Source: Salinispira sp. (lineage in GTDB: Bacteria > Spirochaetota > Spirochaetia > DSM-27196 > Salinispiraceae). Taken from it: a stretch of DNA of 64,000 bases. Below, piece by piece: positions 4,573 to 54,590 of this stretch. The notes beneath the pieces are model-generated. The model was not told the origin of the DNA. It ran no database searches and was given only the letters and a program-made list of their open reading frames with translations. Location of the stretch: NCBI GenBank assembly GCA_965226555.1, contig CBDDDG010000001.1:96001-160000 (forward strand), written 5' to 3'. A program made the position numbers and the translations under genes. Position 1 is the first letter of the stretch. Every line of letters starts with the position of its first letter.

Positions 4573-5948
4573 ATCATGCTCCTCGGGTCAAGAATTGAAT
4601 TGAGTTCATCTTCACTGATAATTTTCTCTTCAAGAACAAGATCGCGAATTTTTTTCTTCTCCCTGTATGCCCGGTAGGCCAGCGTACTCGCCCGATCATA
4701 GCCGATTTTCACAGCCAGCGGAGTAACCATGGCGAGGCTCCAGTCTATCCAGTAACGGCAGCGTTCGCTGTCGGCCGCGGCGCCGCGAATGGCCTTGTCG
4801 GCCAGTGTGTTGCAGGCCTTTGTGAGTATGGTAATGGAGCTCAGCACTTCATAGGCTATGAGGGGGTTCATCATGTTCAGTTCGAGAGGCGCGTTCTGTC
4901 CTCCCATGGTAACGGAAATGACCTTACCGTGAACATGGGCAGCAACCTGAATGATCATTTCCGGAATAACAGGGTTCACCTTCCCGGGCATAATGGAGCT
5001 GCCGGGCTGAAGGCTGGGAAGAAGAATTTCACCGAGGGCGCCGCGGGGACCGCTGGCAAGAAGGCGCAGATCGTTGGCAATTTTCATAAGCGATGTTGCA
5101 AGAACATTCACTGCCCCCATAAATGCTACCTGAGCGTCTCGGGCGGCAATGCCTTCAAACTTGTTAGCGGCAGGAACAAAGCCTATGCCGGTATCGGCGG
5201 CAATGCCGGAAATTGCGCGGTCGGCAAAGTCCGGGTGAGTGTTCAGACCCGTACCAATTGCCGTACCGCCGAGGGGAAGTTCTTCCATGTCAGCAAAGCT
5301 GTTGCGGATGCGCGCCGCGGCCTTTTGAATTTGCAGGGCGTACACAGCAAATTCCTGACCGAGGGACATGGGTACGGCGTCCTGAAGGTGGGTTCGCCCG
5401 AGTTTGAGTACCTCGGAAAATTCATCGGCCTTTGCCGTGAAGGCATCGGCGAGGTTGGTAAGTGAGGCGAGCAGGCCATCCGCTTCAACGCGGTTGGAAA
5501 TGTGCAGGGCTGCGGGGATAACGTCGTTTGAGCTTTGTCCGCGGTTGACGTGATCATTCGGATGTACGGGTTTCCGCATGCCGATGGGTTCGCCGAGAAT
5601 TTCATTTGCGCGGTTGGCGATGACTTCGTTCGCGTTCATATTGCTGCTGGTGCCGCTGCCGGTCTGAAACACATCAACCGGAAAATGGTCATTCCATTTT
5701 CCCTCATACACCTCTGTTGCGGCCTGTATAATGGCCTCCGCACGTTCCGGCTCCAGAAGTCCGAGCTCCCGGTTCGCAGCGGCGGCATTCTTCTTAATGA
5801 GGGCGATTGCCTGAATCATTGCCGACGGCAGGACAATGCCCGATATCCTGAAATTCTCTACAGCCCGCTGTGTCTGCGCGCCCCAATAGGCCCATGCGGG
5901 AATTTCAATATCTCCCATGCTGTCTGACTCAATTCTTTTTTCATTCAT
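4569..5948 (-). CDS. fumC: Class II fumarate hydratase
   Basis: RIESDSMG, QTGSGTSSNMNANEV, HPNDHVNRGQSSND, GRTHLQDA, GSSIMPGKVNP signature. Confidence 0.93.
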   Translation of the reverse strand: MNEKRIESDSMGDIEIPAWAYWGAQTQRAVENFRISGIVLPSAMIQAIALIKKNAAAANRELGLLEPERAEAIIQAATEVYEGKWNDHFPVDVFQTGSGTSSNMNANEVIANRANEILGEPIGMRKPVHPNDHVNRGQSSNDVIPAALHISNRVEADGLLASLTNLADAFTAKADEFSEVLKLGRTHLQDAVPMSLGQEFAVYALQIQKAAARIRNSFADMEELPLGGTAIGTGLNTHPDFADRAISGIAADTGIGFVPAANKFEGIAARDAQVAFMGAVNVLATSLMKIANDLRLLASGPRGALGEILLPSLQPGSSIMPGKVNPVIPEMIIQVAAHVHGKVISVTMGGQNAPLELNMMNPLIAYEVLSSITILTKACNTLADKAIRGAAADSERCRYWIDWSLAMVTPLAVKIGYDRASTLAYRAYREKKKIRDLVLEEKIISEDELNSILDPRSMI

Positions 5949-6196
5949 AAAAATTTTTGCTCCTGAAAGTTTCCGCTATATGGCAAGCATTTCATATAGT
6001 TCTCCATAAATTCCCAATTCGGGTTGCCATCCTCATTATAAGGATATTTGCCTTCTCCGTACTCCTTTATTTCCTTCTTTGTAAAACTCTTTGAACCTTT
6101 TATTTCAAATAGATCTTTCAAACTAAAATACTGCCACTTATGAAGTGGAATAATGGGTGAGCCATGCCTTCTTAATGCTGTCCCATTTATTATCAT
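5945..6196 (-). pseudogene. Internally deleted restriction-modification specificity (S/beta) subunit remnant
   Basis: WQYFSLKDLFEIKG...GKYPY joined directly to the C-terminal GNPNWEFMENYMKCLPYS typical of type IIB/S subunits; only 83 codons. Confidence 0.7.
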
Positions 6197-6234
6197 AATT
6201 TGCCCTGCCTCCCACTTTCATATTATAAAAACCA

Positions 6235-6863
6235 TCATTTTTCCAGTAGGCAAAATATGACTTGTACCCTTCTCTGTGTGGTTCCTTGGCTTTCATAACA
6301 ATTACACACGTTGTTGTACCTGCCTTTCATTAAATTACTTCTCCCATCGCCATGAATGTACATATTGGAGCATAGGAGCGAATAAATATCGTGTTGGAAT
6401 TCAACACCTACTATTTGACTTTGTTTAATGTGCCTTTCTTTTTCTTCATTGCCACCAGCATCTCTAATCATGTTTTTCATGGCAGATATTAAGAATCCAC
6501 CGGTACCCGTGCAGGTATCTAAAACCACAGAAGCCTTGTTCACATAGGCTATTTCAGAAAATAATTCTGTTATATGGGGAGGAGTCAAAACTATGCCCAA
6601 ACCTTTGTCGTTATTGGCACATCGTAAAAATTCTATATAAAACTGCCCGAGGGCATCGAAGTACTTATATTGTTATCATCGCCGCTAACAGCAATGGCAA
6701 GAACATCGTATTCTTTAGACAAAAAAGAGGCATAGAGCAAAACCCCATCGACAGCATAACTCCCATATTGTTTTCTATTCTGGCTTTCGTGTTGAGTTAC
6801 ACTGGCCTTACATTCAACAACAATGATTACATGTACATTTTCCGTTATTCTCTCGTTAGCCAT
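6235..6863 (-). pseudogene. Fragmented BcgI-like (type IIB/IIG) endonuclease-N6-methyltransferase
   Basis: MANERITEN / IVVECKA / YAVDGVLLYA in one frame. FDALGQFYIEFLR.ANNDKGLGIVLTPPHITELF, VLDTCTGTGGFL (motif I) and NMYIHGDGRSN in another frame. No NPPY motif; frame break and large deletions. Confidence 0.8.
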
Positions 6864-6895
6864 TTATCTCCCTCTGCGCTGAATGGTCCACAAGA

Positions 6896-6935
6896 GAAAC
6901 TTTTGCAAAGCACAATTTTCAGTAGCAAAACTTTC
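6896..6935 (-). repeat. Degenerate copy of the palindromic repeat family (GAAACTTTTGC...GCACAATT...GTAGCAAAACTTT)
   Basis: Shares arms with the 130-bp elements at 37941, 41589 and 42152; a further fragment lies at ~6946-6974. Confidence 0.7.
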
Positions 6936-6973
6936 CAAGAGTATAACAGAAACCTTCATTAATGCAAAAGTTT

Positions 6974-8119
6974 TTATCTGAATTTTATTGATGATAAAAA
7001 CGATGCAGCCGATTCTAATCCTTTCCAGAAAAAGTCATTCTCATTAATATTGTGGAAAATAGTAGAAAAGTTCTTCATTAATTGACGCCTGTGATCTTTT
7101 TCCTTCTCTTTTTGGATGATTTTAACAGCTGGAGGATTATTTCTCAATGATACAGCGCGCAGAAAAATATCGCGAATATCAATATCGGAAACGGGGAGCG
7201 AATAGCCAATAAAGGTAATTTTATGAGCATTTTGAATTGCATGGAGTACCTCCGTTTGTATCGATTGAAAACTCCCAATAAATTTATGCTTATGAAAAGT
7301 TGGCGTTACAATAATCGGCTGCAATGCAACACTGCGCTTCGATAAAATTTGTCGATCCTCATCGGATTCAAAAAGAATTGGAATTTCTGTAGATTGCTGA
7401 GTATTCTGCCCTGTCGATTCTTGCAAAATTTCTTCTGATTTTTTATCTGAAAAACAATAGATGCACGTTTCATATTCTAGGGATTGAGAATCTACTCTGA
7501 ATAAACGCTCGCATGCCGGACACAATCGCCAATCGATGGAGCCATGAGGCTTGAGTACTGTTATTGGTTTTTGATTCGAATCGGTATCTGTTCCATTTTT
7601 CATTACTATTGGGATGGTATCTCCAAAATGAATATCATACTCATAATCTTGCTTGAGAAGCATTTCCAATAGCCAATCCCAATTCATGCTAATAAAGGTT
7701 ACCTGTACATTTTCTTGAATAATCTGACTCATTAATGAATGAAACGGGCTCGGATCAATATCATGGCTCATCTGTTCTGTTAAGAGAATGAGAATGAGTG
7801 AATTTAAAGACGTTTTAATTTCTAATAATTTTTGCGGAGTATAAGTTCCTAAATTTCTTTCTGCTGCAATTGCTGAATCAATACTGCTATAGACATCTTC
7901 CAATAATATCTGCTCCTCAATAGTTTGATTACCGTAAACTGCTCGCAAAAATTTCACAACATCATGTACTAAAGGAGCAGATTCAATGCTTACGCGTTCA
8001 CGAAAATCATCTGCCAGAATTTTAGTAAGCAATTGTTCCTGAAGAGGAAATCCCATCGCGCGGGAGAATCCGGCACCGATAATTACCGTGTGTGTTTTTG
8101 CTGGATGAGTTTTATCCAA
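6974..8119 (-). CDS. SIR2-like (SIR2_2) protein, probable NADase effector, with a CxxC...CxxC insert
   Basis: IIGAGFS, SMNWDWLLE, LKPHGSIDW, CPAC/CIYC, IVTPT, FIGYSLP.SD. Confidence 0.88.
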   Translation of the reverse strand: MDKTHPAKTHTVIIGAGFSRAMGFPLQEQLLTKILADDFRERVSIESAPLVHDVVKFLRAVYGNQTIEEQILLEDVYSSIDSAIAAERNLGTYTPQKLLEIKTSLNSLILILLTEQMSHDIDPSPFHSLMSQIIQENVQVTFISMNWDWLLEMLLKQDYEYDIHFGDTIPIVMKNGTDTDSNQKPITVLKPHGSIDWRLCPACERLFRVDSQSLEYETCIYCFSDKKSEEILQESTGQNTQQSTEIPILFESDEDRQILSKRSVALQPIIVTPTFHKHKFIGSFQSIQTEVLHAIQNAHKITFIGYSLPVSDIDIRDIFLRAVSLRNNPPAVKIIQKEKEKDHRRQLMKNFSTIFHNINENDFFWKGLESAASFLSSIKFR

Positions 8120-9444
8120 ATTTTTAGGTGCTCCGTAGATGTATATTCAGATTTTTTATTCCATTCAATGAAATCATGCAGGTTTTTCATATTGATCTTA
8201 TCCTCTACAATCTCAGAAATTTTATTCAACACAAAATGCACTTGATTATTCCACAATGTTTCAGATGTCGGCATGAGCTTTTCAGTATTGGGGATTGCTT
8301 TTCTCGCCCCATAATGTTCGGCAAAAACTGTTTGAGTAAATTTCCCTGGGGACAATATTTCATGGCATTTCAAGCAGCCGCACACTTTCTTAGTATAGGC
8401 TGAATCAAATTCCTTTCTCATTTGCAGAATTGCATCGACAATTTCAAACCTCATTCGCTGTTGCGCGTACGGCAAATAAAATTTGGCAGTCGGTAGTCCT
8501 CCTCCAACCGGCAATACGCTGCGATATTCTCCATAACCCGGCCCATGAGCAATACCATTCAGTCGTTTTTCTTTTTTCAAAAGCGTAGAAAACCCGCCTC
8601 CATATAAATTAATGACTTTTTTACCTTTATAGTTAAAATGTATGAGCAATTCCCGATACGCTTGCAGGTATTTTTCATTTTGAGAAGTCTCGTCAAAATT
8701 ATTAATCCACAACAGCAATGTGGAAATTTTTGATGTGGAATACACGTCCTTAATCTGCTTCATTTTATCTGGGTCTAATAAAACACTCTTTTCTACAATT
8801 ATCTCCAAAGCAGTCTCTATATCGTCATTTCTTGGATTTTTGTCATACTCTTGAATAATCGTTTTGTTTATTTTTAACGCTTTGTCAAAATCTGCAAGAG
8901 TCATGTATAAGCAGGGCAGTATTATAAATGTTGGTTTAGGAGAAATATCGGATTCTTCTTCGTAATCAGAATAACCTTTTTTTTCCATTGCTTCTTGGGA
9001 CAGGCTGTTTTGAATATAATGTGTTTGAAATTCCAGAACATTTTTCGTGAGGTCACTAATATTGGCTGCTATATCGGAGAATTGGAGGGCTTGCTTGGTT
9101 TTGATAATTTGTTGGCCTAAGCGACCAAAACGCTGCAGTAATTTCTCCATAGATTTCTTTAGAGTCATACTATCTGTGTTCGCGTAGTACTTCAGTGGGT
9201 CTATGGTGAGAACATACGTCATAGGATCAATAAAAAATGAACAGTTTCCGAATGTTATTGTGAGCATTTTGGCAATTGCCGCCGGCGTATGTACGGCAAC
9301 ATTGCCGTTTATTACGATTCCAGTTTTTTTCTGGGAAATATATTGTTTTATTAAAGGTTCCAAGAGAATTTTTTTCTCGTTGTGAGAACCGAATCGGATA
9401 AACTGTTCAGTTTTCATTATGCTGCCTGCATAATTTAATATCAT
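8083..9444 (-). CDS. Hypothetical protein with a C-terminal CxCxxC...H putative Zn site (TGT/beta-protein-like barrel, inferred); alternative start at 9417
   Basis: 453-aa AT-rich ORF overlapping both neighbours; motifs FFIDPMTY, LLWINNFDE, NLYGG, GIAHGPGYGE, VGGGLP..KFYLP, CGCLKC...HF. Confidence 0.75.
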   Translation of the reverse strand: MILNYAGSIMKTEQFIRFGSHNEKKILLEPLIKQYISQKKTGIVINGNVAVHTPAAIAKMLTITFGNCSFFIDPMTYVLTIDPLKYYANTDSMTLKKSMEKLLQRFGRLGQQIIKTKQALQFSDIAANISDLTKNVLEFQTHYIQNSLSQEAMEKKGYSDYEEESDISPKPTFIILPCLYMTLADFDKALKINKTIIQEYDKNPRNDDIETALEIIVEKSVLLDPDKMKQIKDVYSTSKISTLLLWINNFDETSQNEKYLQAYRELLIHFNYKGKKVINLYGGGFSTLLKKEKRLNGIAHGPGYGEYRSVLPVGGGLPTAKFYLPYAQQRMRFEIVDAILQMRKEFDSAYTKKVCGCLKCHEILSPGKFTQTVFAEHYGARKAIPNTEKLMPTSETLWNNQVHFVLNKISEIVEDKINMKNLHDFIEWNKKSEYTSTEHLKIWIKLIQQKHTR

Positions 9445-9847
9445 CGAATATTTCTAAAAAATTCTTTCTTAAAAATTCATTATGCATTCTTGATTTTTTG
9501 TCGACAATCTTTTCTATTTCTTTCTTATCTTGATCCCAAATATAAAATGAGAGATCAAATTTGTTTATTTTTTCTTCAATTGTTGTTGTATTGCGCGGGA
9601 CAGTTGCCTTCGGCATAATGAGAATTGCCTTGTCGACAACACAGCTGTGATCCTTCAATTGTTCAATAGCTCTCTTCCAATTCTTTAGTTTTACTTCAAT
9701 AGAAATTAAGGAATTGTCCTTTTGCAAAAATATGTCTACAATACGCGACATGAGGGGAATTTCCCTATAAACCTTGTACGTTTTTCCGTCCAACGGTTCA
9801 TGGGTAAAATACCTAAGCAATTCCGTTTGAACTTTTGCCTCCGTCAC
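9407..9847 (-). CDS. Small PD-(D/E)XK-fold protein (sce7726/MmcB-like), 146 aa from a GTG start
   Basis: YREIP...IVDI...ISIEVKLKNWKRAIEQ motif; GTG at 9847 overlaps the upstream TGA (GTGA) and follows GGGAGA. Confidence 0.75.
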   Translation of the reverse strand: MTEAKVQTELLRYFTHEPLDGKTYKVYREIPLMSRIVDIFLQKDNSLISIEVKLKNWKRAIEQLKDHSCVVDKAILIMPKATVPRNTTTIEEKINKFDLSFYIWDQDKKEIEKIVDKKSRMHNEFLRKNFLEIFDDIKLCRQHNEN

Positions 9848-10464
9848 AACGTATATTCTCCCAATACTTGGTTTTTTATTAATGAATTTTTCGTAGAATC
9901 GGGATATCGCGTGTAAACATAGTGCAGAATTGTCTGTAAGGTTTTGTGTATAATGCTTGTTTTGAATCGTACGAGAATTTCCCGTTGGGGTTCGGTTAAA
10001 TTTGTCCATGAAAACCATTTCTGAGGCGAGGTAATAACTTTCTTTCCTTCTCCGCTAAGCGTATATTTTTCAATTTCATGCGTATAATCATTAATCCCTA
10101 AATTATCATTTTCAAAACCCCTCATATTCGATTCCCAGACATCATCGGCTCTACCTATTTGAGAATAAGAAATGCTTATAGTAAGCATATGTTTCGCGTT
10201 TAAAAAATCCACTGCTTCCAACACGTCTGTGCTGAATGGTCCAAAATTATAGGCTTCAAAATCAAAAGAAGAAATATTGTCAGACGGATTCAGGAATTTC
10301 TGCTGTACTTCCTGCTCAAAAAGGTACATCATCTTCATTAATCGCGTTCTGCCAGTAATTGGATATGCGATATTTTGATCCAGATCGCCGTATAAGGTGA
10401 GATGCACCGGCGCATAAAGCAGCAGGTGTAAAATATGAACGCATTTATAATTTTTCTTCGGCAT
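9844..10464 (-). CDS. Panacea/SocA (DUF4065)/YwgA-like winged-helix protein, putative antitoxin-like
   Basis: ITGRTRLMKMMYLF, FDFEAYNFGPFSTDV, YTLSGEG, ILHYVYTRYP. Confidence 0.78.
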   Translation of the reverse strand: MPKKNYKCVHILHLLLYAPVHLTLYGDLDQNIAYPITGRTRLMKMMYLFEQEVQQKFLNPSDNISSFDFEAYNFGPFSTDVLEAVDFLNAKHMLTISISYSQIGRADDVWESNMRGFENDNLGINDYTHEIEKYTLSGEGKKVITSPQKWFSWTNLTEPQREILVRFKTSIIHKTLQTILHYVYTRYPDSTKNSLIKNQVLGEYTL

Positions 10465-10654
10465 GACAAGAGTATATCAGAAACCTTTATTTATGCAAAC
10501 CTTTTTGATACAGTCTTCTACCCACATAGCATTCACCCCGCATTCAAGAGCAATCCGACCTTACCATATTGTATTCATCATTAACAATGATAGCACTGGG
10601 ACGATATCGCCATACATGCCTTTTCTTTTGTTTTCCAAATGTATATACTGCGAT

Positions 10655-10724
10655 AAAACTTTGCTACTGAAAACTTTGTTACTGGAAATTGTGCAAGCAC
10701 AATTTTCCAATGCAAACGTTTCTA
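10655..10724 (+). repeat. Palindromic repeat-family copy with a duplicated left arm
   Basis: AAAACTTTGCTACTGAAAACTTTGTTACTGGAAATTGTGC-AA-GCACAATTTTCCAATGCAAACGTTTCTA. Confidence 0.85.
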
Positions 10725-12599: not shown

Positions 12600-12656
12600 A
12601 CAAAGTTTTGCTACTGGAAATTGTGCACGCACAATTTTCCAATGCAAAAGTTTCTA
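12600..12656 (+). repeat. 57-bp single-hairpin form of the palindromic repeat family
   Basis: ACAAAGTTTTGCTACTGGAAATTGTGC-AC-GCACAATTTTCCAATGCAAAAGTTTCTA, immediately followed by AGGAGG. Confidence 0.9.
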
Positions 12657-37940: not shown

Positions 37941-38071
37941 ACAGAAACTTTTGCTACTGGAAATTGTGCAGAGCACAATTTCCAGTAGCAAAAGTTTCAA
38001 ATTCGGAATGCTTTCTTTGTGCTTAGCATTCTCCTATTTCATAGAAAGTTTTGCCTGTGGCAAAACTTTGT
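37941..38071 (-). mobile_element. 131-bp MITE/REPIN-like hairpin element inserted in Rpn copy 1
   Basis: Absent from intact copy 2 (GCATGCT|GATAATT). Perfect 26-bp stem with AGA loop and an 11-bp stem with TGT loop; ACA...TGT ends; no clear TSD. Confidence 0.85.
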
Positions 38072-41588: not shown

Positions 41589-41718
41589 ACTGAAACTTTT
41601 GCATTGGAAAATTGTGCTTCGCACAATTTCCAGTAGCAAAAGTTTCACATTTGGCAGACCTCGTTGCGCTTGGCATTCTCTCATTTTGTAGAAAGTTTTG
41701 CCTGCGGCAAAACTTTGT
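41589..41718 (-). mobile_element. 130-bp hairpin element with a variant middle, inserted just upstream of the internal SD in copy 4
   Basis: Same terminal hairpins as 37941-38071, different central ~45 bp; absent from the other copies. Confidence 0.85.
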
Positions 41719-42151: not shown

Positions 42152-42281
42152 ACAGAAACTTTTGCATTGGAAAATTGTGCAAGCACAATTTCCAGTAGCA
42201 AAAGTTTCAAATTCGGAATGCTTTCTTTGTGCTTAGCATTCTCCTATTTCATAGAAAGTTTTGCCTGTGGCAAAACTTTGT
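42152..42281 (-). mobile_element. 130-bp hairpin element at the same codon position as the copy-1 insert
   Basis: Identical flanks and middle to 37941-38071; the left hairpin arm and loop differ. Confidence 0.85.
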
Positions 42282-52439: not shown

Positions 52440-54590
52440 ATGATACTTTTCAATACACGTACTAAAACAGGGAAGTACTCCCTGTTTGTCGTATTCTTAG
52501 TGGTGCTTGCCGTGCTGCTTGCTGGGTGTCCAATGCCGGAACCAAGCCCTGAACCCGATCCAATGACGGAACCGGAACCAATGACGCCGGGCACCATGGA
52601 CGCCCCAACCCTTGAAGCGGGGAATGGTCAACTAACGGTTAACTGGACTCCGCCCGCTGATAACGGTGGCAGCCCCATTACCGCGTATGAACTTCGCCAT
52701 AGCGATGACGGCGGGAGCAACTGGTCGGAGGATATTACTACAGCCGACGCGCCAGCCGCAAGCGCCGCCATCACGAACCTGACAAACGGCACCCCCTACG
52801 TCGCGCAGGTGCGCGCACGGAACAGCGCGGGCGCAGGCGACTGGTCGGGATCGAGCGATGGAGCAATACCTATTACCGTTCCCCTCGCGCCGAATGCGTT
52901 TACGCTCGCAGTGAGTATGCAAACAATTACCGCGTCATGGGCTGCTCCGACCGATACTGGAGGCAGCGCCATTATTCGCTATGAACTACAATATCGCGTA
53001 GTCGGAACACGCGCGTGGGAATCTGCCACCGCCGATGCCGACACCTACACCCTCACCATCCCCAACCTGACAAAAGGTGCAGAGTATGAGGCGCAGGTCT
53101 ACGCTGTCAATGGTCAGGGCAATGGCAACCCAACGGAAATTATGAAAATAACAATTCCGGCTACCAAACCCGCAGCGCTGTCCGCTCCTACGCTCACAGG
53201 CGGAAACGCCCAGATCACCGCAGCATGGACGGCGCCCGATGACGGCGGCAGCCCCATTACCGAGTACCATGTGCAGCACAGAACAAGCGCCGCTAGCACA
53301 TGGTCAACGACCGATACAGATAACATCGCCACTATTACTGATGGTACCACGAGCCACCCCATTACCGGGCTGACAAACGGTGCCTCCTACCACGTACGGG
53401 TGCGCGCGGTCAACGATATCGGCACTAGCGACTGGTCTACACCTGCAACGGGAACAACGGTAATTTCTGCGACACAGACTACTTCTTCGGGTACGGCAGC
53501 GACGGTAGACCTTTCGGCTGCCGCTATGACCATTATTGCCGATGAGACCCCAACCGTTGCTTTGACCGTGGTGGAACCGGGCACTCTCGCGGTTAGTGGA
53601 TCAGGAGACATTACAGTCACCGCCGCAACTGCGCCCGGTACGGTCACCCCTCCGACAGTTGATTCGGGTACCGGAGCTGTTACGGTTACCGCGACGACAA
53701 CGGCAGGAACATATCTGGTATATGGCAGCAAAGCCGGAGACATACTGTTTGCCGAATATTTTTACGTTACCGTGAGTCCTGCTGATAACGCTGCACTGGA
53801 CACAGCGGTAGCTGCGGGAATAAGTAATTGGGGCAATACTGCCGATCTCAACTACATTGTTACCACGGCAGTAACGGATATGACCGATATTTTCAAGGGT
53901 ACACTTGGCGATCCAAACATGTTCAATGGCGATATCTCCGGTTGGGATGTCAGTAAGGTAACGACTATGGAAAATATGTTCAATTATGCAAGCGCATTCA
54001 ATGGCGATATCTCCGGCTGGGATACCAGCGCGGTAACGAGTATGAACTATATGTTCAGTTACGCATTCGCATTCAATGGCGATATCTCCGGCTGGGATGT
54101 CAGCGCGGTAACGAATATGTTCCATATGTTCGATGGCGCAAGAGTATTTAATGGCGATATCTCACTCTGGGATGTCAGTAAGGTAACGAATATGATCTTT
54201 ATGTTCAGTTACGCAAGCGCATTCAATGGCGATATTTCCGGCTGGAATACTCGCGCGGTAACGAATATGAACTATATGTTCTGGGATGCATTCGCATTCA
54301 ATGCCGATATTTCCGGCTGGGATGTCAGCAATGTAACGGGTATGGGTTATATGTTCAATAGCGCAAGAGCATTCAATGCCGATATCTCGGGCTGGGATGT
54401 CAGTTCGGTAGCGATTACGAGCAATATGTTCAATGGAGCAAGGGCATTCAATCAAAATCTTGAGGAGTGGAAGGATCATTGGTCGACTGCTGCCGGGACG
54501 CTTGATGCCGCTGGCACATACACCGGAAACAAAGCAGATATGTTTACGGATTCCGGCGTAACAGGTAATCTGATTCCGTCATGGTTTTAG
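52440..54590 (+). CDS. Surface lipoprotein with three fibronectin type III domains and BspA/DUF285 repeats
   Basis: Lipobox LAGC; three W..P.D.GGS.I..Y...V.A.N..G FN3 units; FNGDISGWDVS..T.M..MF repeats. Confidence 0.9.
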   Translation: MILFNTRTKTGKYSLFVVFLVVLAVLLAGCPMPEPSPEPDPMTEPEPMTPGTMDAPTLEAGNGQLTVNWTPPADNGGSPITAYELRHSDDGGSNWSEDITTADAPAASAAITNLTNGTPYVAQVRARNSAGAGDWSGSSDGAIPITVPLAPNAFTLAVSMQTITASWAAPTDTGGSAIIRYELQYRVVGTRAWESATADADTYTLTIPNLTKGAEYEAQVYAVNGQGNGNPTEIMKITIPATKPAALSAPTLTGGNAQITAAWTAPDDGGSPITEYHVQHRTSAASTWSTTDTDNIATITDGTTSHPITGLTNGASYHVRVRAVNDIGTSDWSTPATGTTVISATQTTSSGTAATVDLSAAAMTIIADETPTVALTVVEPGTLAVSGSGDITVTAATAPGTVTPPTVDSGTGAVTVTATTTAGTYLVYGSKAGDILFAEYFYVTVSPADNAALDTAVAAGISNWGNTADLNYIVTTAVTDMTDIFKGTLGDPNMFNGDISGWDVSKVTTMENMFNYASAFNGDISGWDTSAVTSMNYMFSYAFAFNGDISGWDVSAVTNMFHMFDGARVFNGDISLWDVSKVTNMIFMFSYASAFNGDISGWNTRAVTNMNYMFWDAFAFNADISGWDVSNVTGMGYMFNSARAFNADISGWDVSSVAITSNMFNGARAFNQNLEEWKDHWSTAAGTLDAAGTYTGNKADMFTDSGVTGNLIPSWF
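53922..54446 (+). repeat. Seven tandem 75-bp (25-aa) DUF285 repeats
   Basis: Each unit starts TT(C/T)AATG(G/C)CGATAT. Confidence 0.92.

Follow-up and report, generated by a model that had tools for sequence, protein, structure and literature searches.

We analysed a 64,000-nucleotide stretch of the Salinispira sp. contig CBDDDG010000001.1 (positions 96,001 to 160,000; hereafter the window, to which coordinates refer), and within it a cassette of four minus-strand genes which a previous sequence-only reading had taken for an undescribed four-gene anti-phage system. The genes are open reading frames (ORFs), running from A (9844-10464, 206 aa) through B (9407-9847, 146 aa, GTG start) and C (8083-9444, 453 aa) to S (6974-8119, 381 aa, TTG start). 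The database protein for C begins at the second ATG and has 444 aa, and our residue numbers for C follow that form. Each gene overlaps the next, A and B by a GTGA at 9844-9847, B and C across 9407-9444 and C and S across 8083-8119, and the G+C content of the block is 36.2%, compared with 47.2% for the genome. All four frames are open and their products carry the motifs SMNWD, KPHGS, IEVK and CGCLKC...H; the earlier description of four overlapping, AT-rich, intact genes is thus accurate. An aldo-keto reductase gene flanks the cassette on one side and fragments of restriction-modification (R-M) genes on the other.

Loci anchored on homologues of C were gathered from genomes (94, being all 14 from one search and the best 80 of 109 from another), metagenomes (77) and viral contigs (4), giving 175 fetched loci, or 176 with the window. 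Where a C locus had enough flanking sequence on both sides, A was present in 86/86 cases and B in 84/86, a clustering of the three genes that is far beyond chance. The expectation that homologues would co-occur elsewhere is therefore borne out, with A and B beside C in 84 of the 86 well-flanked loci. The unit that is conserved, however, is a three-gene core of A, B and C, not four genes: the synteny of the core stands, but the SIR2 gene S is not fixed, being one of three occupants of a variable slot. Among the first 95 loci the commonest order is A-X-B-C (44), X being a membrane protein, followed by A-B-C-S (23, including the window and the locus we number L040) and C-S-A-B (16), with A-PIN-B-C and A-B-C found twice each and eight loci partial or odd. 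All four genes stay together when their order is rearranged, be it A-B-C-S, C-S-A-B or C-S beside an inverted A-B, and the closest intact relatives (L111 and L112, 40% identity) share the A-B-C-S order of the window. The C family comprises 979 clusters from many bacterial phyla and from Thor-, Heimdall- and Bathyarchaeota, and none of our scans with Pfam, NCBIfam and PADLOC detected it. The cassette is real and widespread, a modular system of bacteria and archaea that is apparently undescribed and of which the window locus is one of three forms. At two further loci (L010:4294-7176 and L157), downstream of a sigma-70 gene come an A with an N-terminal extension and a C that has diverged, and both B and an effector are missing.

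Effectors were counted in the 114 of 176 loci that have A, B and enough downstream sequence, merged at 90% identity to 104; these include relatives and are thus not mutually independent. The slot holds X in 51, SIR2 in 46, PIN in five and nothing in two (L003, in which C is broken, and L073), and in no case two together, so the slot is filled by one of three mutually exclusive proteins. X is a protein of 150-230 aa with two or three predicted membrane helices, for which five members tested gave no Pfam match and the alignment no invariant column. The PIN identity was confirmed in 7/7 proteins tested, all of them bare domains of 131-157 aa. X and PIN always follow A, which lies directly upstream of a membrane or PIN gene in 56/104 loci, while S always follows C. 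On midpoint-rooted FastTree trees of A, B and C, whose deep branches have weak support, SIR2-bearing loci fall into several separate groups (4, 5 and 5 parsimony steps), so the slot has been refilled more than once.

The assignment of S to the SIR2 family is supported by matches to Pfam SIR2_2 (E 6e-7, above the cut-off) and to PADLOC SIR2 (E 3.5e-13), and by conservation of GAG15-17, N146, D148 and H192, which together supply the GAG, N-x-D and HGS motifs. We predict that S, which carries a CxxC...CxxC insertion, is an NADase effector. Since most close SIR2 relatives sit outside core loci (of the best 80 of 308, 12 accompany a core and 68 stand alone or in other settings), S is a recruited module. 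Close relatives found alone (L197, L203, L217, L220, L227, L230-L232, L244 and L268), mostly in Bacteroidota, are possibly a single-gene SIR2 defence family. In Moorella mulderi an 831-aa protein with tetratricopeptide repeats and a SIR2 domain is encoded upstream of the cassette (L040:2443-4938).

C is the signature component of the core, and sequence and fold modelling place it in an uncatalogued family of zinc-binding TIM barrels within the tRNA-guanine transglycosylase (TGT) superfamily. It has both the (beta/alpha)8 barrel and the C-terminal CxCxxC...H zinc subdomain of the TGT fold, and the earlier proposal of a TGT-family barrel with such a zinc site is supported in this respect. Aligned by strand order, the general acid/base aspartate at the end of strand 3 (TDSGG in TGT) corresponds to D64, present in 142/144 C proteins. 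No nucleophilic aspartate was found at the end of strand 8, where columns 288-293 read G-V-(C/S/A)-H-G-x and aspartate is not among the five commonest residues, nor was a base-reading aspartate found at the end of strand 4 (columns 164-171, F-L-I-A-P-Y-F-Y). Because aspartate is absent from both positions, C is probably not a DpdA-like base exchanger, and its proposed role as a "modifier" probably fails with it. This bears directly on the idea that C installs 7-deazaguanine or another base in host DNA or RNA while B restricts unmodified DNA, as in Dpd, which we consider very improbable. Nucleophile and base-reading aspartate are invariant in TGT and DpdA (PMC10164549). DpdA requires Asp95, Asp130 and Asp256; only the first of these three has a counterpart in C. 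Furthermore, DpdA works with DpdB and DpdC, yet the cassette holds no Dpd gene; the PADLOC Dpd models matched neither C nor the other window genes, the flanks having been scanned by Pfam only. That flank scan covered 146 of the 162 nearest ORFs at 86 loci (16 short ORFs and two duplicate loci excluded, proteins cut to 600 aa), and QueC, QueD, QueE and FolE are absent from the 146 genes, with only two matches to a QueC-like motif, by a crude regular expression, in all neighbouring ORFs.

B is, by its sequence, a PD-(D/E)XK nuclease-fold protein and a core component. E3, D38, E51, K53 and Q63 are invariant in 86 sequences, the first four making up the E...D...(D/E)xK catalytic set of such nucleases and upholding the original call, and individual members give weak Pfam matches to MTES_1575, UPF0102, Hjc, NERD, HSDR_N and PDDEXK_4. 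The presence of a TGT fold with a zinc subdomain beside an intact-looking nuclease in 84/86 loci would suit a modification-dependent restriction system, in which C reads or excises a modified base in phage DNA and B cuts at that site, with the effector as no more than a backup; so would the frequent adjacency of R-M genes and the two core loci without an effector. However, an effector is retained in 102/104 loci, one of the two exceptions (L003) has a broken C, and the guanine-reading aspartate is missing by strand mapping, and we regard restriction as the primary function as unlikely.

A is predicted to be a regulator, a winged-helix protein of the Panacea/SocA or DarG C-terminal type with an acidic insertion in its wing. 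The fold supports the earlier Panacea-like call, although the scores against PF13274 (20.2 and 24.7 bits) are below the gathering score of 25.7. The GP motif (G75-P76) is invariant; A, at about 200 aa, matches only the non-macro part of DarG, and part of PDC-M19A as well (residues 39-106 on 21-79 of 294). The suggestion that A directly restrains SIR2 is not supported: S always follows C, and across 41 loci the divergence of S correlates with that of C (0.69) and B (0.67) more closely than with that of A (0.43, the lowest). At two loci (L040:10784-12743 and L084:1880-3419) extra A-family genes stand directly after HD-domain genes, as a two-gene pairing beside the cassette.

The combination of one constant core with an NADase, membrane or RNase partner, never two at once, is characteristic of abortive-infection systems. 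We think it very probable that the cassette is an anti-phage system. Its most likely wiring, with chances about even, is a guard complex for abortive infection in which contact between proteins controls the effector. In such a complex the core would sense infection and release or switch on the effector through direct contact. In C, a remodelled version of the TGT pocket would bind a nucleobase or nucleotide, with no base exchange, B would nick or cut nucleic acid, and A, through its acidic wing, would be a DNA-mimicking, antitoxin-like brake until infection. DNA mimicry is known from DarG. The effector would stop the cell, whether by depletion of NAD+ (SIR2), damage to the membrane (X) or cleavage of RNA (PIN). 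Panacea antitoxins neutralise, by binding, toxins that are membrane proteins or nucleases (PMC8832971), and the toxin genes follow the antitoxin gene (PMC8832971 and PMC10440598), as X and PIN follow A.

We favour contact over a messenger because domain scans detected no ligand-binding or sensor domain on any of the three effector types: the membrane proteins lack an invariant column, the PIN proteins are bare domains and S has no sensor-domain match. Exchange of an NADase for a membrane protein is, nevertheless, typical of signalling systems. Thoeris types show such swapping (10.64898/2025.12.03.692087), and upon infection B and C could together make a small signalling molecule, either a nucleotide or derived from a base, to activate the effector, as in CBASS, Thoeris and Kongming. 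The enzyme-like retention of D64, E243, H291, E297 and R299 in C, at 87-99%, is consistent with this, as is the ability of C-S and A-B to occupy separate transcription units. Yet the core holds no cyclase, TIR or synthetase, and the want of a ligand-binding domain on the effectors, or of any conserved residue in the membrane family, counts against a diffusible signal, which we judge fairly unlikely.

The setting of the cassette bears on whether it is a defence system at all. It is patchily distributed, C being absent from 40/40 relatives of the host. A defence-type gene (R-M, HNH, Abi, Cas6, Shedu, GmrSD or OLD) adjoins it in 20/86 loci, one of them (L056) counted by its BLAST clustering with R-M proteins, and for this figure the background rate was not computed. 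An integrase, resolvase or transposase adjoins it in 13/86. Four viral contigs carry the cassette, three as C-S with an inverted A-B after a repressor-like gene and one as A-X-B-C; the genome locus L090, identical in sequence to L188, has the former arrangement, and a recombinase-like gene follows the cassette in viral contigs L188 and L190. The recombinases and transposases, together with a Panacea-like A directly upstream of a membrane or PIN gene, might instead suggest that the cassette is a toxin-antitoxin module of several genes, which stabilises mobile elements by addiction. This would not explain why bacteria and archaea alike keep B and C; moreover, a search of plasmids gave no match, and the cassette sits among defence genes and in accessory slots of prophages, so an addiction module seems quite improbable. 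At L055 (1626-10840) the cassette is inserted with a DUF6079 gene on one side and the gene of a large N6/N4 methylase on the other, surroundings that, we presume, resemble the inside of a BREX-type cluster.

Several observations weigh against parts of the guard-complex interpretation. A is probably not a direct inhibitor of SIR2, given that A-S divergence correlates least and that A-B is separable from C-S and may be transcribed apart from it. A strictly guarded toxin should not stand alone, as 68/80 of the close SIR2 relatives do. In 54/86 loci the cassette has no defence or mobility gene as its neighbour, in a tally that has no background control. The mapping of TGT residues onto C follows strand order and not a residue-level superposition, the profile comparison of C with TGT is not significant, and E297, found in 142/144 C proteins, might substitute for the absent nucleophile. 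Finally, the window copy itself may be in early decay. Its predicted catalytic and zinc-binding residues are all intact, but its C departs from the consensus of 40 SIR2-type loci at 19 of their 72 conserved columns (median 2; 9 in L111, the nearest relative), with changes at Y169, F170, W180, F70 and Q71, all kept in L111, and its S departs at 11/46 columns. These departures and the broken R-M locus alongside make early decay possible; the distance of the clade accounts for part of the divergence of C and S.

The statement that the combination is not a named system agrees with our searches: PADLOC 2.0, including PDC-M19, fully matched no system, with no match for the window B and none consistent for C, and no description of the gene set was found in the literature searched, although supplementary tables, subscription papers or DefenseFinder models later than 2023 could hold one. 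The papers used for comparison were PMC10164549, 10.1101/2025.04.06.647259, 10.64898/2025.12.03.692087, PMC8832971, PMC10440598 and PMC13434031. DpdA and Cap10 are the closest known immune uses of the TGT fold, and the cassette belongs with neither. Type IV CBASS has a CD-NTase and a QueC-like Cap9, both absent from the cassette and from the 146 flanking genes, and its Cap10, which has no zinc site, retains both the catalytic and the base-reading aspartate; in C the zinc ligands are present and, by strand mapping, the two aspartates are not. The cassette resembles PanAT and DarTG by the GP motif and DarG-type winged helix of A and by the 56/104 loci that pair A with PanA toxin classes (membrane and PIN). 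However, A scores below the Pfam cut-off, two obligatory genes (B and C) are added, whereas Kurata et al. report third genes for only a small fraction of PanAT loci, and the cassette has neither macrodomain nor DarT. S shares its GAG, N-x-D and HGS motifs with the SIR2 effectors of Thoeris I, DSR, SIR2-HerA, SPARSA and Kongming, but it is short, bears CxxC-CxxC and always follows C, and the cassette lacks a SLOG, TIR, HerA, prokaryotic Argonaute or KomAB partner. The P4 Beta and sce7725-sce7726 modules combine a TIM barrel, a PD-(D/E)XK protein and a variable toxin. The cassette is built on similar lines. The strand-3 motif of C recurs in one Beta protein, which lies beside a PD-(D/E)XK-like gene, though unlike C it lacks CxCxxC. 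Comparison of C with a single Beta sequence gave a probability of 4.3%, and the comparison for B one of 0.45%, neither significant, and PF14350 matched no member of the C family.

Around the cassette, the neighbouring R-M genes are shattered, as had been observed: minus-strand fragments at 5945-6863, downstream of the cassette, include N6_Mtase (6235-6600) and Methylase_S (5945-6196) remnants, with stop codons between the pieces. Two minus-strand copies of a 40-bp direct repeat, 88% identical, bracket the cassette exactly, copy 1 at 10467-10506 and copy 2 at 6936-6975, upstream of the broken R-M genes. Each holds a sigma-70-like promoter match with an extended -10, in a scan whose overall number of sites was no higher than in shuffled sequence. 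The match in copy 1 (10499-10471) ends 6 nt upstream of the ATG of A, from which we infer a leaderless transcript. Copy 1 is the sole other match to copy 2 longer than 24 bp in the genome, and the layout looks as if the cassette had inserted with duplication of the R-M promoter. A palindrome resembling repetitive extragenic palindromic (REP) elements occurs upstream of the cassette as a full copy (10669-10722) and beside repeat copy 2 as a half copy (6897-6935), and these bracketing copies may have helped the insertion. The element is about 55 bp long and present genome-wide in hundreds of copies, elsewhere in the window at 12602-12655, 37945-38000, 41593-41650 and 42156-42210; one of its 13-mers occurs 249 times, 48 of them within ORFs of at least 150 aa, although such ORFs make up 84% of the genome. 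Contigs from two runs of one sample span positions 5963-10704 unbroken and with zero mismatches, a match that is not independent support because the window may itself come from that sample. Another repeat that is abundant across the genome (13-mer, 238 copies) forms 75-bp tandem units at 53925-54235, probably a coding repeat of a surface protein.

In kind, the cassette would belong with the modular abortive-infection systems already known. If our interpretation is right, prokaryotic immunity has put the TGT fold to use a third time, besides DpdA and Cap10, here with a remodelled pocket, and the cassette is a compact natural test case in which one core drives three unrelated effectors, an NADase, a membrane protein and a PIN domain. 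At about 3.5 kb, and found in cultured, named strains, it is directly testable. Among these strains are Moorella mulderi DSM 14980 (L040), with the order A-B-C-S, and Pseudomonas cuatrocienegasensis CIP 109853 (L063), with A-X-B-C. Phages use 7-deazaguanines against restriction. We suggest, speculatively and as something we consider unlikely, that C forms a new branch within the TGT superfamily, in which a base writer has become the reader of a phage-specific modified base (such as 7-deazaguanines) or a nucleotide damage product, licensing B and triggering a plug-in suicide effector. Should that reader role hold, the cassette would be categorically new: an immune sensor for the modification of phage DNA, derived from the very fold that installs such modifications, and present in bacteria, in Asgard and other archaea, and in prophages.
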